From Escherichia phage MN04, in the sequence record MT129654.1: a stretch of DNA of 64,000 bases; one strand, written 5' to 3'. Both the position numbers and the translations under genes were made by a program. Below, piece by piece: positions 24,816 to 59,320 of the stretch; the stretch's first letter is position 1, and the number at the start of each line of letters is the position of its first letter. The notes under the pieces are model-generated. The model saw nothing but the letters and a program-made list of their open reading frames with translations. It was not told the DNA's origin and made no database searches.

Positions 24816-25137
24816 TTTATCTGATTTAGATAATTTTGTTAAAGATACTGAAGAGGGTCCTAGTGACCCTCGTTATTATGAGAAATCGTTAGATATAATC
24901 CGTAAGTCAATGGGTTCTGTTAAGCAGGAAATTATGCTTACATTACCCGATGGCACTGCTCACATCGTTTATGTGATGAATATTGTTATTGAGAAAGATG
25001 GAAAAGTGTCGGTTGATTTCGGAACGCCTTCCGAAGACCGAAAAGAAGAGCTAGCGCTTCATGTAGAAAAATGTGTTACAATGCAAATACAAGAAGAACT
25101 GGATAAAATTAAATCTAAGAGGTGGTGGAAGTGGTAG
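24808..25137 (+). CDS. hypothetical protein; gp40-like by position
   Basis: 109-aa ORF between uvsX and 41, as in T4; no sequence confirmation. Confidence 0.4.
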   Translation: MTDLSDLDNFVKDTEEGPSDPRYYEKSLDIIRKSMGSVKQEIMLTLPDGTAHIVYVMNIVIEKDGKVSVDFGTPSEDRKEELALHVEKCVTMQIQEELDKIKSKRWWKW

Positions 25138-26561
25138 AAACTATTTTGGCTCAACTGCTAGGCAATAGTGATTATTTCACTAAGGTCTGGCCTTATATGA
25201 ATGATTCTTATTTTGACCAGGGTCCGGCAAAGACCCTTTTCAAAGAAATCAAAAAACATGTCAATGAATATAATGCGGTGCCTTCTAAAAATGCTTTGAG
25301 TATTGCATTAGATAACAGCACCCTTTCAGAAGTTGAACACCAAGGAGCTAAAGAGCTTTTAAGTTCACTGAACGCTGGCCCTGAAGACCAAGAATGGTTG
25401 GTTAAAGAGACAGAGAAATATGTTCAGAAGGCAGCGATGTATAATGCCACTTCAAAAATTATTGAAATTCAAACTAATGCCGACCTTCCGGTTGAGCAAC
25501 AAAATAGAAAACTCCCAGGTATTGGTGCTATTCCAGATATCATGCGTGATGCATTATCGATTTGTTTCGATTCTGAATTAGGCCATGACTGGATGGATGA
25601 CTATGAAGAACGTTTTAAAAGTTATTCCGATAAAGCACGTAAGGTTCCATTCCGTCTTAATATTCTGAATAAGATTACTAAGGGTGGCGCTGAGTTTGGT
25701 ACTGAAAACGTATTGTTGGCAGGAACAAACGTAGGTAAGTCTCTGGGTCTGTGTTCATTGGCTGCTGATTACCTTCAATCCGGTTACGATGTTCTTTATA
25801 TCTCCATGGAGATGGCAGAGGAAGTATGCGCTAAGCGTATCGATGCTAACCTTCTAGATGTATCACTGGATGATATTGATGATGGTCACGTCTCATGGCC
25901 TGAATATAAAGCTAAGATGGATAAGTGGCGTTCAACTGCTACTTTAGGTCGTTTAAAGATTAAACAGTATCCTACTGGTGGTGCTAATGCCGATACATTC
26001 CGTGCATTATTAAACGAATACAAGCTCAAACAAAACTTTGTCCCACAGGTCGTTATCGTCGACTACTTGGCTATCTGTGCTTCATCCCGTACGAAAGTTT
26101 TCTCTGAAAACAGTTATGGATTGATTAAGATGGTTGCCGAAGAACTACGTGGACTTGCAGTAGAGAAGAAATTATTGTTGTGGACTGCAGCCCAGACTAC
26201 TCGTGGTGCGAACGTTGCCGCCGAAATCGATATGGCTGATATCGCTGAATCCTTTGGTATTGCACATACTGCAGACTTCATGTTAGGTGTGGTCGAGACA
26301 GAAGAGTTTGCTCAGATGGGTATGCAGATGGTTAAGCAGCTTAAATCTCGTTATGGTGATAAGAGCTACTACAACAAATTTAAGATTGGTGTTAAGAAAG
26401 GAAACCAGCGTTGGTATGAAGTTGAAGACGATTCTAACCCAGGCCCAGTGAACACCGTTCGTGAGGCTACAGGTGAAATGAACCGCCAAGCAGAGGTCAA
26501 TCGCCAGTCGCGTGTTAATAGAAGCGATTTAGACGATTTAGCAGCATCTATCAAATTTTAA
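25122..26561 (+). CDS. 41: replicative helicase gp41 (DnaB-like)
   Basis: 479 aa; GTNVGKSLGLCSLAADYL Walker A and IVDYLAIC; matches recalled T4 gp41. Confidence 0.95.
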   Translation: MVEVVETILAQLLGNSDYFTKVWPYMNDSYFDQGPAKTLFKEIKKHVNEYNAVPSKNALSIALDNSTLSEVEHQGAKELLSSLNAGPEDQEWLVKETEKYVQKAAMYNATSKIIEIQTNADLPVEQQNRKLPGIGAIPDIMRDALSICFDSELGHDWMDDYEERFKSYSDKARKVPFRLNILNKITKGGAEFGTENVLLAGTNVGKSLGLCSLAADYLQSGYDVLYISMEMAEEVCAKRIDANLLDVSLDDIDDGHVSWPEYKAKMDKWRSTATLGRLKIKQYPTGGANADTFRALLNEYKLKQNFVPQVVIVDYLAICASSRTKVFSENSYGLIKMVAEELRGLAVEKKLLLWTAAQTTRGANVAAEIDMADIAESFGIAHTADFMLGVVETEEFAQMGMQMVKQLKSRYGDKSYYNKFKIGVKKGNQRWYEVEDDSNPGPVNTVREATGEMNRQAEVNRQSRVNRSDLDDLAASIKF

Positions 26562-26586
26562 GGAGCTTCGGCTCCTTTTTTTTGTT
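26561..26586 (+). terminator. intrinsic terminator after gene 41
   Basis: AGGAGCTTCGGCTCCT hairpin plus T9. Confidence 0.7.
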
Positions 26587-26592
26587 TTAAGG

Positions 26593-26621
26593 GTTTACTT
26601 CTCCTGTAGGCATGATACTAT
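26593..26621 (+). promoter_or_regulatory. early promoter, PeSL-like
   Basis: GTTTAC, 17 nt, TACTAT with TG at -15, then AGACCTATCAACT. Confidence 0.55.
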
Positions 26622-26645
26622 AGACCTATCAACTTGGAGAACAAA

Positions 26646-26963
26646 ATGAAAACCATCGACTGTAAAGCGGAATATAAAGTGTATTACCATGGAAGTTGTA
26701 GTGTTGCTAATATTGGTAATATGCTTTGTCCTCCTGAGGAAACAGGAGTTCTGTCTGAAACTGGTCGTAAGAAAAACCTAAATCGTGTGTTCTTTACTGA
26801 AGATATCGGTTTGGCTAAGATTTATGCTGGACGAGCTGCTCGTTCGGTGGGAGGAGAACCTCGTCTTTATCGTGTAATTGCTCCGGTAGATGTGGTTTGT
26901 TTAAATGATACCAAAGGCGCTACGGTTTATCACGCTGAATGGGCCTTCTGTGAGGAAATCTAA
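26646..26963 (+). CDS. hypothetical protein (105 aa)
   Basis: ATG with GGAGAA SD after a PeSL-like promoter. Confidence 0.45.
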   Translation: MKTIDCKAEYKVYYHGSCSVANIGNMLCPPEETGVLSETGRKKNLNRVFFTEDIGLAKIYAGRAARSVGGEPRLYRVIAPVDVVCLNDTKGATVYHAEWAFCEEI

Positions 26964-27167
26964 ATGTATAAATTAGAGAACGTAGTGTTTATTGGTTGGT
27001 TTGAAAATGGTAATATGTTTACCAAAGAAACTGCGCTGGATGTTAGTGACCAAAAAATGATTGAATGGGTTACAGTGCAGTATGCAGAAGTGAATAATGC
27101 ACTGGTGAAAGCCTTTGTTAATGACAATAAAGTTTTTGAATATGATGCCCGCATTGAGGAAATCTAA
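26964..27167 (+). CDS. dmd: Dmd-like antitoxin (discriminator of mRNA degradation)
   Basis: VVFIGWFENGNMFTKE...QYAEVNNALVKAF resembles recalled T4 Dmd, in the 41-61 interval as in T4. Confidence 0.7.
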   Translation: MYKLENVVFIGWFENGNMFTKETALDVSDQKMIEWVTVQYAEVNNALVKAFVNDNKVFEYDARIEEI

Positions 27168-27308
27168 ATGGAAGAGGTTGAATGTGTAGTATGTGGTTGT
27201 TCGGTATGTGAAGACCAGGCAGTATTTGATGCTTGGGACAACGCAACTTGTTTAGACTGCGATAGCGAATACGAAGAAATTGCTCATAAACATGAAGACG
27301 AGGAATAA
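27168..27308 (+). CDS. small Cys-rich acidic protein (46 aa)
   Basis: CVVCGCSVC...CLDC; start overlaps the dmd stop. Confidence 0.35.
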   Translation: MEEVECVVCGCSVCEDQAVFDAWDNATCLDCDSEYEEIAHKHEDEE

Positions 27309-27548
27309 ATGAATATTGTATTAATGAAGCCAACCCCTAGCTCTTTTTGGAATAAATCTTTTGGTAAGCATAATATGTTTATCCAACGCACCGTAAGCAG
27401 CTGGGAACTAGTTCTTTCAGTAGGTCATAATGATTATGAACAGGAATATGTAGAGTTCTTCGAATTTCCTGTGAAGCCTACTAAGCGTCAGATTCGTCAG
27501 ACCAAACGTAAATTCCGTAAAATTTATTTGGAAGATTCGTTAAAATAA
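27309..27548 (+). CDS. small basic protein with PTKRQIRQTKRKFRK motif
   Basis: Paralogue of the 3514 and 28339 ORFs by shared C-terminal motif. Confidence 0.4.
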   Translation: MNIVLMKPTPSSFWNKSFGKHNMFIQRTVSSWELVLSVGHNDYEQEYVEFFEFPVKPTKRQIRQTKRKFRKIYLEDSLK

Positions 27549-27549
27549 A

Positions 27550-27579
27550 GTTTACATCGGTCTATGGTAGTGATACTAT
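27550..27579 (+). promoter_or_regulatory. early promoter, PeSL-like
   Basis: GTTTAC, 18 nt, TACTAT, then AGACCTATCCACT. Confidence 0.55.
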
Positions 27580-27607: not shown

Positions 27608-27901
27608 ATGAAAAAGTTATTAATCGCAGCAATCCTTACAGTAGCATCATGTGGCACGGCTCCGGTAACTGCCGGATTGGATAAAGACCTTTGTGAATGG
27701 TCTATGACTGCAGACCAAGAGTCAGTTGAACATCAGATTTATGCCGATATCATGAACATCACTAAACGTGACCGTCCTGACATGGTTAAAGAAGTGTCCG
27801 ACCAATTAGCTTCAACCGGTGTTATGCAGTACAACTATGTTTTGTATTGTGACGCTAATTTCGATAACAAAAACATTGTTAAAGAGGTTACAGGTGAGTA
27901 A
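27608..27901 (+). CDS. secreted/lipoprotein-like small protein; Sp-like by size and position
   Basis: 97 aa, signal peptide with a Cys (ILTVASCG); same size and locus as T4 sp. Confidence 0.45.
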   Translation: MKKLLIAAILTVASCGTAPVTAGLDKDLCEWSMTADQESVEHQIYADIMNITKRDRPDMVKEVSDQLASTGVMQYNYVLYCDANFDNKNIVKEVTGE

Positions 27902-27902
27902 A

Positions 27903-28337
27903 ATGATTAACAGAACTTTGGTTATTAAAAAGCTTCGTTGTAAAAATCCAAACGCACAAGCATACAGGATGTTTTGGAGCGACGACCATCAGTACCTAGG
28001 TTATTTTATTGTTGATAGCGACGATAGAATTGTATTCGCTCATAAACTTCTTAACAGAGAATTAAACCATTGGCAAGAACTTATTGCTGTTAAGTCTAAA
28101 TTATTTTCGCTCAATGCAATGCACCAATTGGTTTATTTTTTCGCTGACGGGTTTCCGGACAAGGTTGAATTTGAAGGATTCGAATTTAAAGATATCCACC
28201 CGGGCAACGAATTGAACGACCGCGTTAATATGGATATCCCTAGCAAGTATATCAAAAACAGTCTGTTGAAAATTCTGGAAGCTCCGGTTTATTCAATTGA
28301 CGACCAGATTTTTAATGCCTTTATGAACCGAGGTTGA
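27903..28337 (+). CDS. hypothetical protein (144 aa)
   Basis: ATG right after the upstream stop; the track's longer ORF (27819) overlaps the preceding gene. Confidence 0.45.
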   Translation: MINRTLVIKKLRCKNPNAQAYRMFWSDDHQYLGYFIVDSDDRIVFAHKLLNRELNHWQELIAVKSKLFSLNAMHQLVYFFADGFPDKVEFEGFEFKDIHPGNELNDRVNMDIPSKYIKNSLLKILEAPVYSIDDQIFNAFMNRG

Positions 28338-28338
28338 T

Positions 28339-28560
28339 ATGTTTGTCTTAACTCAATTCTCTAAAGCAGTGTATAGTTACTCTTGTCAGTGGGAAGTCTT
28401 TATTGATTCTCCTTCGCCCAAGTACGGCGTTTTTGGACGAGTAACTACTCAGGCTTACGTTGCACGACCTACTAAAAGACAGATTCGTAAGCTTAAAAAG
28501 GCACACCGTCAACTGATTAAAAGAAGGGAACAATATGAGTGCAATGTGTACGGGCTCTAA
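28339..28560 (+). CDS. small basic protein with RPTKRQIRKLKK motif
   Basis: Paralogue of the 3514 and 27309 ORFs. Confidence 0.4.
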   Translation: MFVLTQFSKAVYSYSCQWEVFIDSPSPKYGVFGRVTTQAYVARPTKRQIRKLKKAHRQLIKRREQYECNVYGL

Positions 28561-49081: not shown

Positions 49082-49531
49082 ATGAATACTTATATGACTC
49101 GCGGTAACGTTCTGTCTGCTGGTGCTACTACTGTTGCTTATGTTAAGAATGGCGAATACCAAAATGGTAAGCCTTCTAAAGAAATCTCAGCCCAGCCAGG
49201 CTTCTACTTCTTTGTTAAAGGTGAAGCAGATTCTCGTGTCGTAGCCGCTCGCTTTTATGTCGGCAACCAACGTTCAGCTCAAGGTCTTGATGGTATTGTG
49301 GCTAACATTCGTAAGAAACGTTCGCAATCAGCTCGTACTATGGCTGTGAATGGTGTAGTGTATGAAGTTCTTTATGTACCTGCTTCTAAAATGAAACCAC
49401 TGACTACAGGTTTTGGTAAGGGTCAAATTGCAATGGCTTTCACTCGCAACCATAGTTCCGACCTTCAGACCCTGGAAGAAATGAACCGCATGTTGGCTGA
49501 TAACTTTAAATTCGTTCTGCAGGCTTACTAA
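49082..49531 (+). CDS. ndd: nucleoid disruption protein Ndd
   Basis: 149 aa; RFYVGNQRS...[17 protein letters not shown]...TRNH...[19 protein letters not shown] matches recalled T4 Ndd. Confidence 0.85.
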
Positions 49532-49608
49532 TGAGCAATTTCCATAACGAACATGTGATGCAGTTCTATCGTAACAATCTTAAAACTAAAGGCGTCTTCG
49601 GACGCTAA
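49531..49608 (+). CDS. stp: Stp peptide (anticodon-nuclease activator / restriction inhibitor)
   Basis: 25 codons, [25 protein letters not shown], essentially identical to the recalled 26-residue T4 Stp; start overlaps the ndd stop. Confidence 0.8.
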
Positions 49609-51848: not shown

Positions 51849-52484
51849 ATGTCTAAAATTACTTATATCATCAAAGCTTCTGAAGACGCCCTGAATGAAA
51901 AAACCGCTTCAATCTTAGTACATATCATCAAGCATAACTTCATCACTTCAGGCGAAGTCCGTGAAGCCCTGAGTGAACAATTTAGTGCAGCGGTAGTTAA
52001 CTCTAACATTGGTGTATTGATTAAGAAAGGATTCATCGAAAAATCTGGTGATGGACTGGTGGCTACGGGTGAAGCAATGGACCTAGTTCAAAAAGCTGCT
52101 GACCTGTTCGCTTCTGAAAATGCTCCAGAGATGTTGGAAAAACGTAAAACTCGCAGTTCACGTGGTGTTACTCCTGAAATGGTAGTATTGGCTGGTGAAG
52201 TTAAATCTTTGTTAGAAGACCGAATCGAGATTCGTGAAATCGCTGAAAACCGTAGCAATCTTGAAGTTCGATTCGCTAAACGTACCAACGGTATTCGTCA
52301 AATCGAAGTCCGTCGTGACGGAATGATGCGTATCTTCGGTTATAATATGACCGATAAAGAAAAACAAGTGTTTACTTCCTTGAATCTTGATGTTAAGATT
52401 AAGACTGGTGGTAAGAATACTTATATCGACTTCCAAAACGTATCATCTGAAGTTATCAAAACCGTAACCAACGCAATTATCTGA
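51849..52484 (+). CDS. motA: middle-transcription activator MotA
   Basis: 211 aa; MSKITYIIKAS...NSNIGVLIKKGFIEKSGDGL matches recalled T4 MotA (also 211 aa). Confidence 0.85.
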   Translation: MSKITYIIKASEDALNEKTASILVHIIKHNFITSGEVREALSEQFSAAVVNSNIGVLIKKGFIEKSGDGLVATGEAMDLVQKAADLFASENAPEMLEKRKTRSSRGVTPEMVVLAGEVKSLLEDRIEIREIAENRSNLEVRFAKRTNGIRQIEVRRDGMMRIFGYNMTDKEKQVFTSLNLDVKIKTGGKNTYIDFQNVSSEVIKTVTNAII

Positions 52485-54232: not shown

Positions 54233-54508
54233 ATGACTAAAATTGAAATCGTTTCCGAAATTGCTACTATTGTTTCCATTTTGATTAAAACGGATTGTGA
54301 AGACATCATGCAACGCCGTGATGAGTTTATTGCCTTTTTGAATGAGTTGGGTATTCGTAATGAACATGGAAAGGAACTTAACGGTCTATCTTTTAATAAA
54401 CTCTTTAAGTCTTTAACTGAAGATGAACGTGATACTCTTATTGAGCAATTTAATGAAGGGTATGAAGATATACACCGTTATCTAATGATGTATACCTCCA
54501 ATTTTTAA
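54233..54508 (+). CDS. asiA: anti-sigma70 factor AsiA
   Basis: 91 aa; IVSILIK...FIAFLNELGI...LIEQFNEGYEDIHRYLMMYT matches recalled T4 AsiA. Confidence 0.8.
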   Translation: MTKIEIVSEIATIVSILIKTDCEDIMQRRDEFIAFLNELGIRNEHGKELNGLSFNKLFKSLTEDERDTLIEQFNEGYEDIHRYLMMYTSNF

Positions 54509-55158
54509 CGAGTTCGACCTAATGTCCTCCCGGCCTGACCACACATAGACGAAAGTCTAGGAAATCCTAAATCCGGTTTGATGTCATACCAGTATAATGA
54601 TATCGAACCGGCATAGATGTTATCCAAATTAAAAAACGGACATGAAAACATATACGTGAAATGGGTTTTCTTCTTTGTAGGAAGGAACACAGTTTCTGTA
54701 CTTGATTCAAAATAATTCCCGTTAACTCCCGCCATATACTCCACTGACGTTTTGTCAATCGGAAATCCTCCCGTATTTTTTGCGTCTACCGTTTCCGGTA
54801 ATTTACCCTCATAAGCAACCATGTCCACAAAATAATTCATGTTGGTTGGTCTAAAAGAATATATTGCTGTGAAGTCTGCGCCTGAAGAAGAATGCACTAT
54901 TCGGAGCTGCTCGATAGCCGCAATTTTAAATCTATTGTCCTGGTCTTGTCTAATCATTTCAGTATAAGAGGCATAAGTTGTCTCTTTATAAAAGTTTAGA
55001 ATATATTCGCCTTTATACCAAACCAGTGCCATAAAGAACAATAATATTACGACTAGGACCCGGGAAAAAACTACTTTCCCGGAAGAAGTATCTTTAAAAA
55101 TTCTATCAAGAAGTCCAAAAAGTAGGTCTGATAATGAAAATCCTACTTTTGGTTCCAT
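54505..55158 (-). CDS. t: holin T
   Basis: 217 aa; DLLFGLLDRIFKD, single N-terminal TM, YSFRP...YFVD..AYEGKLP, CPFFNLDNIYAG match recalled T4 T; late promoter TATAAATA just upstream. Confidence 0.9.
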   Translation of the reverse strand: MEPKVGFSLSDLLFGLLDRIFKDTSSGKVVFSRVLVVILLFFMALVWYKGEYILNFYKETTYASYTEMIRQDQDNRFKIAAIEQLRIVHSSSGADFTAIYSFRPTNMNYFVDMVAYEGKLPETVDAKNTGGFPIDKTSVEYMAGVNGNYFESSTETVFLPTKKKTHFTYMFSCPFFNLDNIYAGSISLYWYDIKPDLGFPRLSSMCGQAGRTLGRTR

Positions 55159-56005: not shown

Positions 56006-59000
56006 TTATTTTAACAATGATTTAACTAAAGCTTTAAGTTCTTCAATCTCTGATTTCAATTCTGTTATTTCGGCAGTATGCTCATTGATTGCAGCTGTAT
56101 TTAAACCAATTACACCGTTATAGTTCAAACGAAGTAAAGCTTCACTATTAGGGTCACCTTCAACCAATTCAGGTAAAATAGCTTGAACTTCTTGGGCAAT
56201 TAAACCAGCATTAGGTTCCCATTTCTGATTACCTTCCTCATCTAGGCCTCGCTTCTGCATATAAGTGTAACCGTTAATTTTAGAAAGCTTCTGAGAAGCA
56301 TTTTCAAATTTAACAAGGTCTTTTTTAACGCGAATATCAGAACGAACATAAACATCACGGACATATGTAGAATAGGCATCACTTTGTTGGATTAAATGAC
56401 CAAAAGAAATAATAGCCCTTCCTGTTTCGGTCCACAAAGCACCGGTGGTATCCCAAAGACCTTGATGGATATGGTAAGAGCTAGACCAAGATGCAATATG
56501 CATACCATTGGCAACCATATTGATTCGGCCATCACCGCCGTGTGATAATCCTGTGTCATTATCACCAATAGCAATACTAGGAGAGCCTAATCCGTTAACA
56601 GTTCCAACACCAATGGCAGGAGTCTGGACTAAAGTCGGGGCGTAAAATAAACCGCTAGAGTGGAATTCGAAAATACCTACAGGACCGTCGCCACGCTCGG
56701 CATTACCTACTCGAATTATCGCTTGTCCCCATGCTTGTGGAGTACGACGCATGCCTAATTCAACAGAAGTAGTATAACCCTGACCACTAATTACAGATCG
56801 GCCTTTAATAATGGGATAATAACTGTCTTCACCCACACTACCAAACTCAAGGAAATAAGGTGCTTCTAAGCCCCATTGGTCACCCCATGCACCAGATTTA
56901 TGTGCAATCCAGTTGGAACCGTTCATATAAATACGGTCTCGGTTTACATTGAATACTGAAGCACCTTGTGGAGATAAAACAACCTCACCATTATGGGTGA
57001 TATTAATACCACCTTGGGATTGGAAGCTCCAGAAGGCTAAACCGTTATCAGCACCACCATTACCTACATACCAGTTATCAACACCACCTTTTTTACCCTT
57101 AACATAACCAGCTTCATCTGCCGGATAATCAATAACAATAGCGTCTGAATTGGTTTTAAGAGTTAAGCGGCCTGTCATTGTGTCCCCGCCTTTACCAACA
57201 CGAGTATTCACCGCTGCGTCAAGGTTAGTAGCACCGCTATACTTGTTCCAAATAGAACCTGCAATATTACCATCAGTATTCATGAAAGCTGTACCGGCAT
57301 ATAAGCGGTTCTGAGCCATGAAGTTACCTTCTTTGGTAAAGCGCCAATATTTTAATCCTGTAGCATCACCATCACCAAGCAAATCACCTTGAGCAACAAT
57401 TCGATATTCACTTGTAGCTCGGTCCATACCTTGAGTAACAGTTACGTTCGAATCAATATTTTTCTGCTTAGTAATAGGGTAAAATGCTTGAGTTGCAGCA
57501 TCGAGCGTTTGATATACCAGAGCTTTAGTCGTGTTCTGGTTGGCATAAGATGCACCGTTACTATTAGGGAATTCTAATGCACCATTACCCCTAAAATAAA
57601 CCTGGTCTGCTTCTAAGTTAGGGATTTTAACCCGACCGGTGTCTAACATAATACTTAATGGGCGTAATGGACCCAATCCGCCACTTTCACCAGCATTAAC
57701 ATTGGTTGGGATAATATGTAGCTGGTCTTCTGAATTTCGAAAAATAACACCATACTTATCATTCCAAATACGAAGACCACTAGCAGCGCGGACTTTAATT
57801 TCATTGGAAACATATAGATTGCGTTTTAAAGATGTATCTTGACTGACAGACAATCCTTCGACGATGTTCATCGTGCCGTTTAAATAAGATTCGACTTTAC
57901 CTGCCGTATTTCGTTGAATATAGTGCATCCAGCCGGTAGCATCAGATGTTTCCAATACGTTTTTACGAGAACCACCTACCGTATTAAAAGTGTCACCCCA
58001 ACCTTTGAGCTCTATATTATCAACTGAACTATATCCTGAGGTACTTCCTTTAAAAAGCACAGTGGAAGCGTTACCACGACCGTCAATATTAACCGAACCA
58101 CCACGGACTTCAACGTTACCAGGAGTAACCAACAACCCACCATCAGTGTTAACGTTTGTTACACCTTTACCACGGAAATAATGGTGGTATTTACCACTCT
58201 GATGATAACCTAAAAGAGTCTGCCCATCACCAAAGCCGTTTTTATCATTAGTAGTATTAACAATAACTAATGGATAGTTTTGAGCTGTAGGAAGAATTAA
58301 ATCAGAACCGTTGGTTGAATAACCCGCAACTAACTGTTTAAGGCTTGTAACTTCAGTCGGAGTTGTAAGTAAAGTATAAGCTCCATTATTAACTGTATGG
58401 AACTGGCCGTCTTGTTTCCATTTCAAACCTGTGTTATTGTCACCAAGAGCAATTGAAGCCGTCCCTAATTCAGAATATCCTTTAGGGCCACCTGGAAGAC
58501 CTACAGAAATAGAATGACCGGCTTTCAATCCACCTGCCCAGTTAAACGACAAAATATAAGTGTCTAAGCCATCTCCGGAATACCAGGCTATTCCGTCATT
58601 AACATTAACTTCGTGGAAAATACCTGCTCCTACAGCATTTCGCATAACACGGAGGTGGTTAATAGCCGTTTCGCTTTCTGCCAATGGAGTGTTATTTGAT
58701 AATGAAGATATATCGTAATCGCCGGCGGCTTTACCGTCGGTAATAACTTTATTAGTATAAATTATTGGAGATTTTACCGATGTTCCACCAGAAATAGATG
58801 GAGCATAAAATAAACCGTCACCGTTGAATGCAAAAATATTAGATGTTGAATTAGTGTAATCCTGAACACGAACATTTAAGATTTGCTTGGTATCCCCAGC
58901 ACGGTTTTGAGAATAAATTATGCCTCTTTCACGCGCATCAGCCAAATCCTGGAATCGAACGTGGGTAGTTCCTGCACCCCGTACAAGAACTTCACCGTTA

Positions 59001-59320
59001 TCTGTCATTAGGCGAGATTTTGCTGTGATATCACCATTTGCTGTTATACTTCCGGATGTCGTATAACTACCTGTTTGGGTAAAAGCACCCTTCAGGGCAT
59101 AATCGCCGGTCTGGTTGTAGTTACCGTTATGAATAACGTTTCCGTCGATATTACCACCTTTAGCAAAGCCAAGGTCGATAATCGCTCCAGTGTCATCTTT
59201 GGTAAATAACAAACGGTCTTTTAAGTTAATAGCCAGCTCGCCTTCAGCCAACTGCGCTGGCGTAGGACGTACACCAGCTACTTTACTTCTTTTAAATTGT
59301 ATCTGTTTTAAAGTAGCCAT
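56006..59320 (-). CDS. 37: long tail fibre distal subunit gp37
   Basis: 1104 aa; [36 protein letters not shown] matches the recalled T4 gp37 N-terminus; C-terminal intramolecular-chaperone-like domain. Confidence 0.9.

Follow-up and report, generated by a model that had tools for sequence, protein, structure and literature searches.

Results and Discussion

Organization of the dmd locus

The window analysed here, by which we mean the whole stretch of 64,000 nucleotides, represents a JS98-like Dhakavirus (Tevenvirinae) coliphage genome, with 98-99% nucleotide identity to phages dhaeg, CLB_P2, JS10 and JS98. In the 1.2 kb around dmd, the Escherichia phages dhaeg and CLB_P2 share 98.7% identity with the window, JS10 shares 98.5%, and JS98 shares 97.9%. 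When the JS98 proteins were mapped onto the window the gene order of T4 was found to be kept (uvsX, 40, 41, dmd, 61.4, sp, 61.1, 61, 56, followed by modB/modA, srd, rIIA, rIIB, denB, ndd, stp, motA, asiA, t and gp37). The features considered in this study are collected in Table 1.

Table 1. Coordinates of the features discussed in the text (numbering of the window).
Feature	Position	Strand	Remarks
Gene 41 (helicase)	25122..26561	+	JS98 protein mapping
Intrinsic-terminator-like hairpin, AAGGAGCTTCGGCTCCTT then T-run	26560..26587	+	Directly after the gene 41 stop codon
T-even early-type promoter motif, GTTTAC-N17-TACTATAGAC	26593..26625	+	In front of the four-gene unit
All copies of GTTTAC-N17-TACTATAGAC	26593, 34301, 37670, 48082, 51439, 51783, 54163	+	Before the dmd unit, srd, motA, asiA, others
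105-aa ORF (JS98 orf34, RB69 orf040c-like; PHROG 2110)	26646..26963	+	Opens the unit; minimal ADP-ribosyltransferase fold (predicted)
GAGGAAATCTAAATG, copy 1	26952..26966	+	Encodes E-E-I-stop of the 105-aa ORF; Shine-Dalgarno and ATG of dmd
dmd (discriminator of mRNA degradation), 67-aa Dmd antitoxin, orthologue of T4 gene 61.5	26964..27167	+	Family models, structures, synteny
GAGGAAATCTAAATG, copy 2	27156..27170	+	Encodes E-E-I-stop tail of Dmd; Shine-Dalgarno and ATG of the 46-aa ORF
46-aa acidic ORF (PHROG 13952, unknown function)	27168..27308	+	Directly 3' of dmd
gp61.4/TifA homologue (DUF7279, PF23945), 79 aa	27309..27548	+	Last gene of the dmd unit; 52% identical to T4 TifA
Next early-type promoter, TTTACA-17-TACTAT with TG extension	27551..27579	+	Before spackle
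sp (spackle periplasmic protein; T4 61.3)	27608..27901	+	Conserved synteny 3' of dmd
144-aa ORF in the slot of T4 AdfA (61.2)	27903..28337	+	Follows spackle
Second DUF7279/TifA paralogue	28339..28560	+	71.4 bits; downstream of spackle
ndd	49082-49528	+	In the window
stp	49531-49605	+	In the window; divergent from JS98
motA	51849-52478	+	In the window
asiA	54233-54505	+	In the window; divergent from JS98
Holin t	54508-55158		Divergent from JS98
gp37	56012-59320		Divergent from JS98

The hairpin that follows the stop codon of gene 41 is, by its sequence, the end of the transcription unit upstream of the dmd unit. Behind it is the promoter motif GTTTAC-N17-TACTATAGAC. The window has 7 copies of it, each on the + strand, whereas 0.69 are expected, and in none of 100 shuffles was the number of 7 reached. 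Because copies are located just 5' of srd, motA and asiA, and because motA and asiA belong to the early genes of T4, we read this motif as the early promoter of the phage, of which it is probably the consensus. Between this promoter and the near-identical one in front of spackle we predict an early unit of four genes, consisting of the 105-aa ORF with a putative ADP-ribosyltransferase (ART) fold, dmd, the 46-aa ORF and tifA. In T4, dmd and tifA constitute a two-gene unit under an early promoter (PMC9391042). The string GAGGAAATC-TAA-ATG is present at both ends of the 67-aa ORF, with the Shine-Dalgarno inside the end of the preceding gene, and therefore each stop codon abuts the next start codon; these stop/start junctions suggest that the genes of the unit are translationally coupled.

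The first-pass annotation had placed dmd in one host-takeover and anti-defence set with stp, ndd, asiA and motA. All four genes are indeed in the window, but they are 22-27 kb distant from dmd, and the only link with it is the shared block of early genes on the + strand. Copies of the early-promoter motif of the dmd unit are located just 5' of motA and asiA, and none was found before ndd or stp in the motif search of the window. The same annotation had passed over functionally relevant neighbours of dmd (the TifA homologue, spackle, the second TifA-like paralogue, and the upstream ART-fold ORF), all of which are in the transcription unit of dmd itself or in the next one.

Some mosaicism relative to JS98 can be recognized in the window. 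While most other genes are 98-100% identical, stp, AsiA, holin t and gp37 are exceptions: the stp product has 80% identity to JS98 orf257, and AsiA, holin t and the gp37 tail fibre are, respectively, 78%, 80% and 57% identical to their JS98 counterparts. The T4 Stp sequence matches the stp product of the window at 100% over 25 residues.

Identity and conservation of Dmd

The ORF listing contains an ATG-to-TAA frame of 67 aa with exactly the limits given for dmd in Table 1, and a GAGG Shine-Dalgarno is located 7 nt 5' of its ATG. The translated product matches Pfam family PF17587 (Dmd) with E = 2.3e-20 and 73.1 bits (curated cut-off 27) over profile positions 3-59 of 60, and PHROG 2102, 'Dmd discriminator of mRNA degradation', with E = 4.6e-33 over positions 1-63 of 63. 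Two PDB chains are matched over their full length, 5i8j_A (E = 8.1e-22) and 5hy3_B (E = 7.9e-17), the latter being the T4 antitoxin Dmd in complex with the toxin LsoA. The multiple alignment places the protein at 100% identity with JS98 Dmd (ABX11059.1), at 68% with the sequence of 5I8J, and at 58% with T4 Dmd. A tblastn search with the same protein returned 781 phage records, nearly all from T-even phages of Escherichia, Shigella and Yersinia, and mostly labelled dmd or antitoxin. The values of dN/dS are 0.19 with respect to the orthologue of Mosigvirus Shf125875 and 0.17 with respect to T4, and dmd is therefore under purifying selection. A 64-aa ORF on the opposite strand (26960..27154) was also considered, and was dismissed in view of the strong family homology of the + strand frame.

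Size and position agree with what is expected of a Dmd. The family consists of small single-domain proteins of about 60 aa, and the surplus in the 67 aa of the window protein is accounted for by 3 aa inserted in a loop and by a tail of 4 aa. The gene lies 3' of gene 41 and 5' of 61.4/tifA and sp, in an early-type unit, with two extra ORFs interleaved with respect to T4: while the order in T4 is 41 - dmd - 61.4 - sp, in JS98 it is 41 - orf34 - dmd - (46 aa) - 61.4 - sp. On the basis of its sequence, then, the 67-aa ORF is a member of the Dmd family, orthologous to T4 gene 61.5, and a Dmd fold is implied by the 68% identity to 5I8J. This is what the first-pass annotation had proposed in likening the ORF to T4 Dmd; it had also indicated that a lack of significant similarity on proper alignment would speak against the assignment, and the alignment, once carried out, returned significant similarity at the level of 58% identity, in agreement with the Pfam, PHROG and PDB matches.

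The comparison with characterized proteins brings out some differences. T4 Dmd (gene 61.5) belongs to the same Pfam family and length class as the window Dmd, and shares with it the genomic slot and the early promoter; nonetheless, 42% of the aligned positions differ. Furthermore, in the window protein three residues are inserted in a variable, poorly conserved loop (residues about 27-32), and the C-terminus is extended by four residues, IEEI, which are encoded by the repeated junction GAGGAAATCTAAATG. At the level of the locus, T4 is without both extras of the window, as it has neither the ART-fold ORF in the gap between 41 and dmd nor the 46-aa ORF in the gap between dmd and tifA. The closest solved structure is that of the 64-aa Dmd of entry 5I8J (E = 8e-22, 68% identity over residues 1-63), which differs from the window Dmd in being without the IEEI tail and in having a loop one residue shorter. 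This entry is labelled T4 Dmd in one paper, yet its sequence differs from that of T4 Dmd. At the opposite end of the scale, the Dmd proteins of JS98 and dhabil are 100% identical to that of the window, and the Dhakavirus locus of JS98, JS10 and dhabil has the same gene order, 98-99% identical DNA, and no relevant difference; the window is another isolate of the genus.

In T4 Dmd, residues W31 and N40 are reportedly required for binding to LsoA. The corresponding residues in the window protein are W35 and N44; in a set of 8 diverse Dmd sequences the asparagine is invariant (8/8), and the tryptophan is found in 7/8. The Dmd of Mosigvirus Shf125875, a Shigella phage (L005:1251-1454), has an arginine at the position of T4 W31. 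In the same record the frame of the ART-fold ORF (L005:931-1380) runs on into dmd, as the result of a frameshift or of an error in sequencing.

A short direct repeat at the borders of dmd

The 15-mer GAGGAAATCTAAATG is present in exactly 2 copies in the window, against 0.01 expected, and the two copies are found at the two borders of the dmd ORF, where each one encodes both the end of one gene and the translation start of the next (Table 1). In two distant T4-like metagenomic contigs, L008 (2210-2641) and L010 (2214-2641), no gene is called between the homologues of the 105-aa and 46-aa ORFs, this comparison covering only the gap between the two homologues; in L008 the first leads directly into the second through the same junction, ...CEEI-stop-ATG-GAA-GAA. 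Phages fDHCT2 (L006:763-957) and 04086 (L007:764-958) have, in addition to the canonical dmd and in tandem 5' of it, a divergent paralogue of 64 aa with 50-56% identity, while the window has a single copy. In this extra paralogue GCCF replaces GWF near the N-terminus, and a further GAGGAAATCTAAATG 15-mer delimits it in fDHCT2.

Given the repeats at its borders, the direct junction in L008, and the bounded extra copy in fDHCT2, dmd looks in this lineage like a cassette that would have been inserted, and sometimes re-inserted, by microhomology at a short repeat that has an older gene on either side. An insertion of this type recalls the amplifications of dmd-tifA by microhomology that have been observed in the laboratory (PMC9391042). 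The second paralogues in the related phages also suggest that one Dmd variant is not enough to cover all toxins. Since the 46-aa ORF and the ART-fold gene are directly adjacent in L008 and L010 without dmd between them, the older partner of the 46-aa ORF seems to be the ART-fold gene rather than dmd.

The genes flanking dmd

The 105-aa ORF occupies a slot, between gene 41 and dmd, in which T4 has no gene. It was found in 609 phage records, from T4-like phages of Escherichia, Klebsiella, Acinetobacter, Aeromonas, Vibrio and others, and the family comprises 122 protein clusters. Its conservation is unusually strong, with at least 62% identity in most members and 18 invariant positions, among which are H15-G16, R41, K43-N44-L45, F49, T51, Y60 and R63. 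The protein is predicted to have an ART fold, for which the Arr and Tpt1-KptA branches were considered. Membership of Arr by sequence failed (PF12120, 15 bits versus a cut-off of 25; NF033144, 12.9 bits versus 130). As no PDB sequence was matched at E ≤ 1 by a profile of the family, the ART assignment is one by predicted fold only. When the family was inspected for the NAD/catalytic motifs (H ... Y/F ... acidic, or the Arg/His tetrad of Tpt1), residues H15 (in YHGS), R41, K43, N44, F49, T51, Y60 and R63 were found to fit the first two motifs, while no conserved catalytic Glu/Asp could be assigned in the alignment. A few records label the protein 'putative ADP-ribosyl transferase'. Literature searches on RB69 orf040c, and on Arr/ADP-ribosyltransferase in Straboviridae, found nothing functional.

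The description of the adjacent Cys-rich 46-aa ORF as uncharacterised, also put forward in the first-pass annotation, holds: the ORF is real, and only PHROG 13952 was matched (E = 4.7e-30), with no match in Pfam, NCBIfam or PADLOC. It is present in 57 phage records, from Dhakavirus and some Mosigvirus, and is unannotated in JS98 and JS10. In a large protein collection it forms three clusters, to which an exhaustive HMM search of the representatives added three distant 46-aa relatives; three repetitive proteins from the same search were rejected as spurious. Of its cysteines, only C6, C9, C28 and C31 (CxxC-x18-CxxC) are conserved across the sequences, C11 and C14 being variable; an AVFD motif and the acidic tail are conserved as well, and the calculated pI is about 4.05. 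With dN/dS of about 0.04 the ORF is under purifying selection, a value to be read with the caveat that dS is saturated. An AF2 model based on an alignment of 4 sequences (pLDDT 47.9, pTM 0.18) had no secondary structure and was unusable. It is a reasonable guess that the protein is a four-Cys zinc knuckle.

On the other side of the 46-aa ORF, the 79-aa product matches DUF7279 (PF23945) with 70.8 bits (cut-off 24.5), and the basic cluster PTKRQIRQxKR is conserved between it and T4 TifA; the PTKRQIR part of this cluster is kept in both DUF7279 paralogues (27309-27548 and 28339-28560). T4 gp61.4 is TifA, an inhibitor of the toxin ToxN (PMC9391042). More generally, TifA (gp61.4) and AdfA (gp61.2) of T4 are small early proteins of the same cluster which, like Dmd, directly neutralise toxins of toxin-antitoxin systems (PMC9391042, PMC11825919), but are unrelated to Dmd in sequence and have other targets (ToxN, DarT). 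The 144-aa ORF in the AdfA slot was tried as AdfA and rejected, as the match is confined to the last 14 residues (SIDDQIFNAFMNRG), which are 100% identical to those of T4 AdfA, while the remainder is unrelated. Because these last residues alone match, the ORF is either a chimera or a replacement in which the 3' junction has been conserved, and it is a further indication that cassettes are exchanged at conserved gene ends. When six ORFs at the dmd locus were scanned with PADLOC and NCBIfam, nothing useful was returned.

Probable inhibition of RnlA and LsoA by Dmd

In T4, Dmd is an early protein, without which the host RNase LS/RnlA cleaves middle and late mRNAs and the infection collapses; cleavage by RnlA is inhibited in vitro by purified Dmd (PMC3014915). 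Both RnlA and LsoA, its homologue on a plasmid, belong to the HEPN toxins of type II toxin-antitoxin systems, and the site at which Dmd binds is the groove that separates the second TBP-like (NRD) domain from the HEPN domain (PMC8266594, citing Otsuka and Yonesaki 2012 and Wan et al. 2016). A literature search on Dhakavirus and dmd found nothing functional, and we infer from T4 the activity of this orthologue against RnlA and LsoA, as well as the timing of its expression, its binding, and the toxins that it would actually neutralise. On these premises the window protein is very probably a Dmd orthologue that acts as a direct protein inhibitor of toxins of the RnlA/LsoA class. As in T4, it would be made immediately after infection. 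The shut-off of host transcription would lead to the decay of the labile antitoxins RnlB and LsoB, and Dmd would bind the HEPN endoribonuclease toxins RnlA and LsoA thus freed, at the groove that the N-repeated domain forms with the HEPN (Dmd-binding) domain; the cleavage of middle and late phage mRNAs would be blocked in this way, and the infection would not be aborted.

It might be argued, in contrast, that the window protein is a true member of the Dmd family whose specificity has shifted toward other HEPN toxins of the RnlA/LsoA family in the natural hosts of Dhakavirus, and that it might not inhibit the RnlA of K-12 or the plasmid-borne LsoA. The identity to T4 Dmd is, after all, just 58%, and both the inserted loop residues and the extended tail set the two proteins further apart; the arginine of Shf125875 at the position of T4 W31 also speaks for a shift. 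Nevertheless, W35 and N44 are conserved in the window Dmd. E. coli K-12 MG1655, the strain on which the close relatives dhaeg and dhabil were isolated, carries rnlAB, and therefore a working counter-measure is expected; the growth on it of phages with an identical or near-identical Dmd speaks against a shift. The two tandem dmd paralogues of fDHCT2 and 04086, with their mutual identity of 50-56%, are what would be expected if the targets differ, but T4 Dmd covers both RnlA and LsoA (Otsuka and Yonesaki 2012, as cited in PMC8266594 and PMC9391042). On balance we regard a shifted specificity as improbable.

Even smaller is the chance, in our opinion almost negligible, that the 67-aa ORF has no current function, being a remnant (decayed or unexpressed) or having arisen by chance. 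Apart from the overlapping 64-aa ORF on the opposite strand no support for such a reading was found, and it is contradicted by an ORF that is intact and of full length with respect to the family profile, by the presence of both a Shine-Dalgarno and an early promoter, and by the purifying selection (dN/dS about 0.18) and the conservation of the gene in hundreds of phage genomes. Thus, direct inhibition of RnlA/LsoA-class toxins is the reading that we prefer.

Significance of the locus

The identification of dmd has, in itself, little significance: it is a well-studied antitoxin gene, already known and annotated as dmd in relatives whose DNA is 98-99% identical. Its value is rather that of an anchor for the locus, as it shows the early unit 3' of gene 41 to be a modular anti-toxin island containing Dmd, TifA, the TifA paralogue, and the chimeric ORF in the AdfA slot. 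The two small genes beside dmd are more interesting than dmd itself, and both the 105-aa gene (ART fold, about 600 T4-like phage genomes) and the 46-aa gene are reasonable candidates for new counter-defence functions.

We put forward as a tentative idea, with the odds somewhat against it, that the ART-fold 105-aa protein and the four-Cys 46-aa peptide that flank the dmd cassette might constitute a new counter-defence module, because both ORFs are predicted to be co-transcribed with members of the Dmd and TifA families, which are proven anti-toxin factors. For example, an NAD-dependent enzyme might modify a host defence protein or RNA, and the small Cys protein might be its partner or regulator; AcrIF11 is an ART that modifies a CRISPR complex. 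Of the two ORFs, the one with the ART fold is widespread and strongly conserved, and the 46-aa ORF is rarer.
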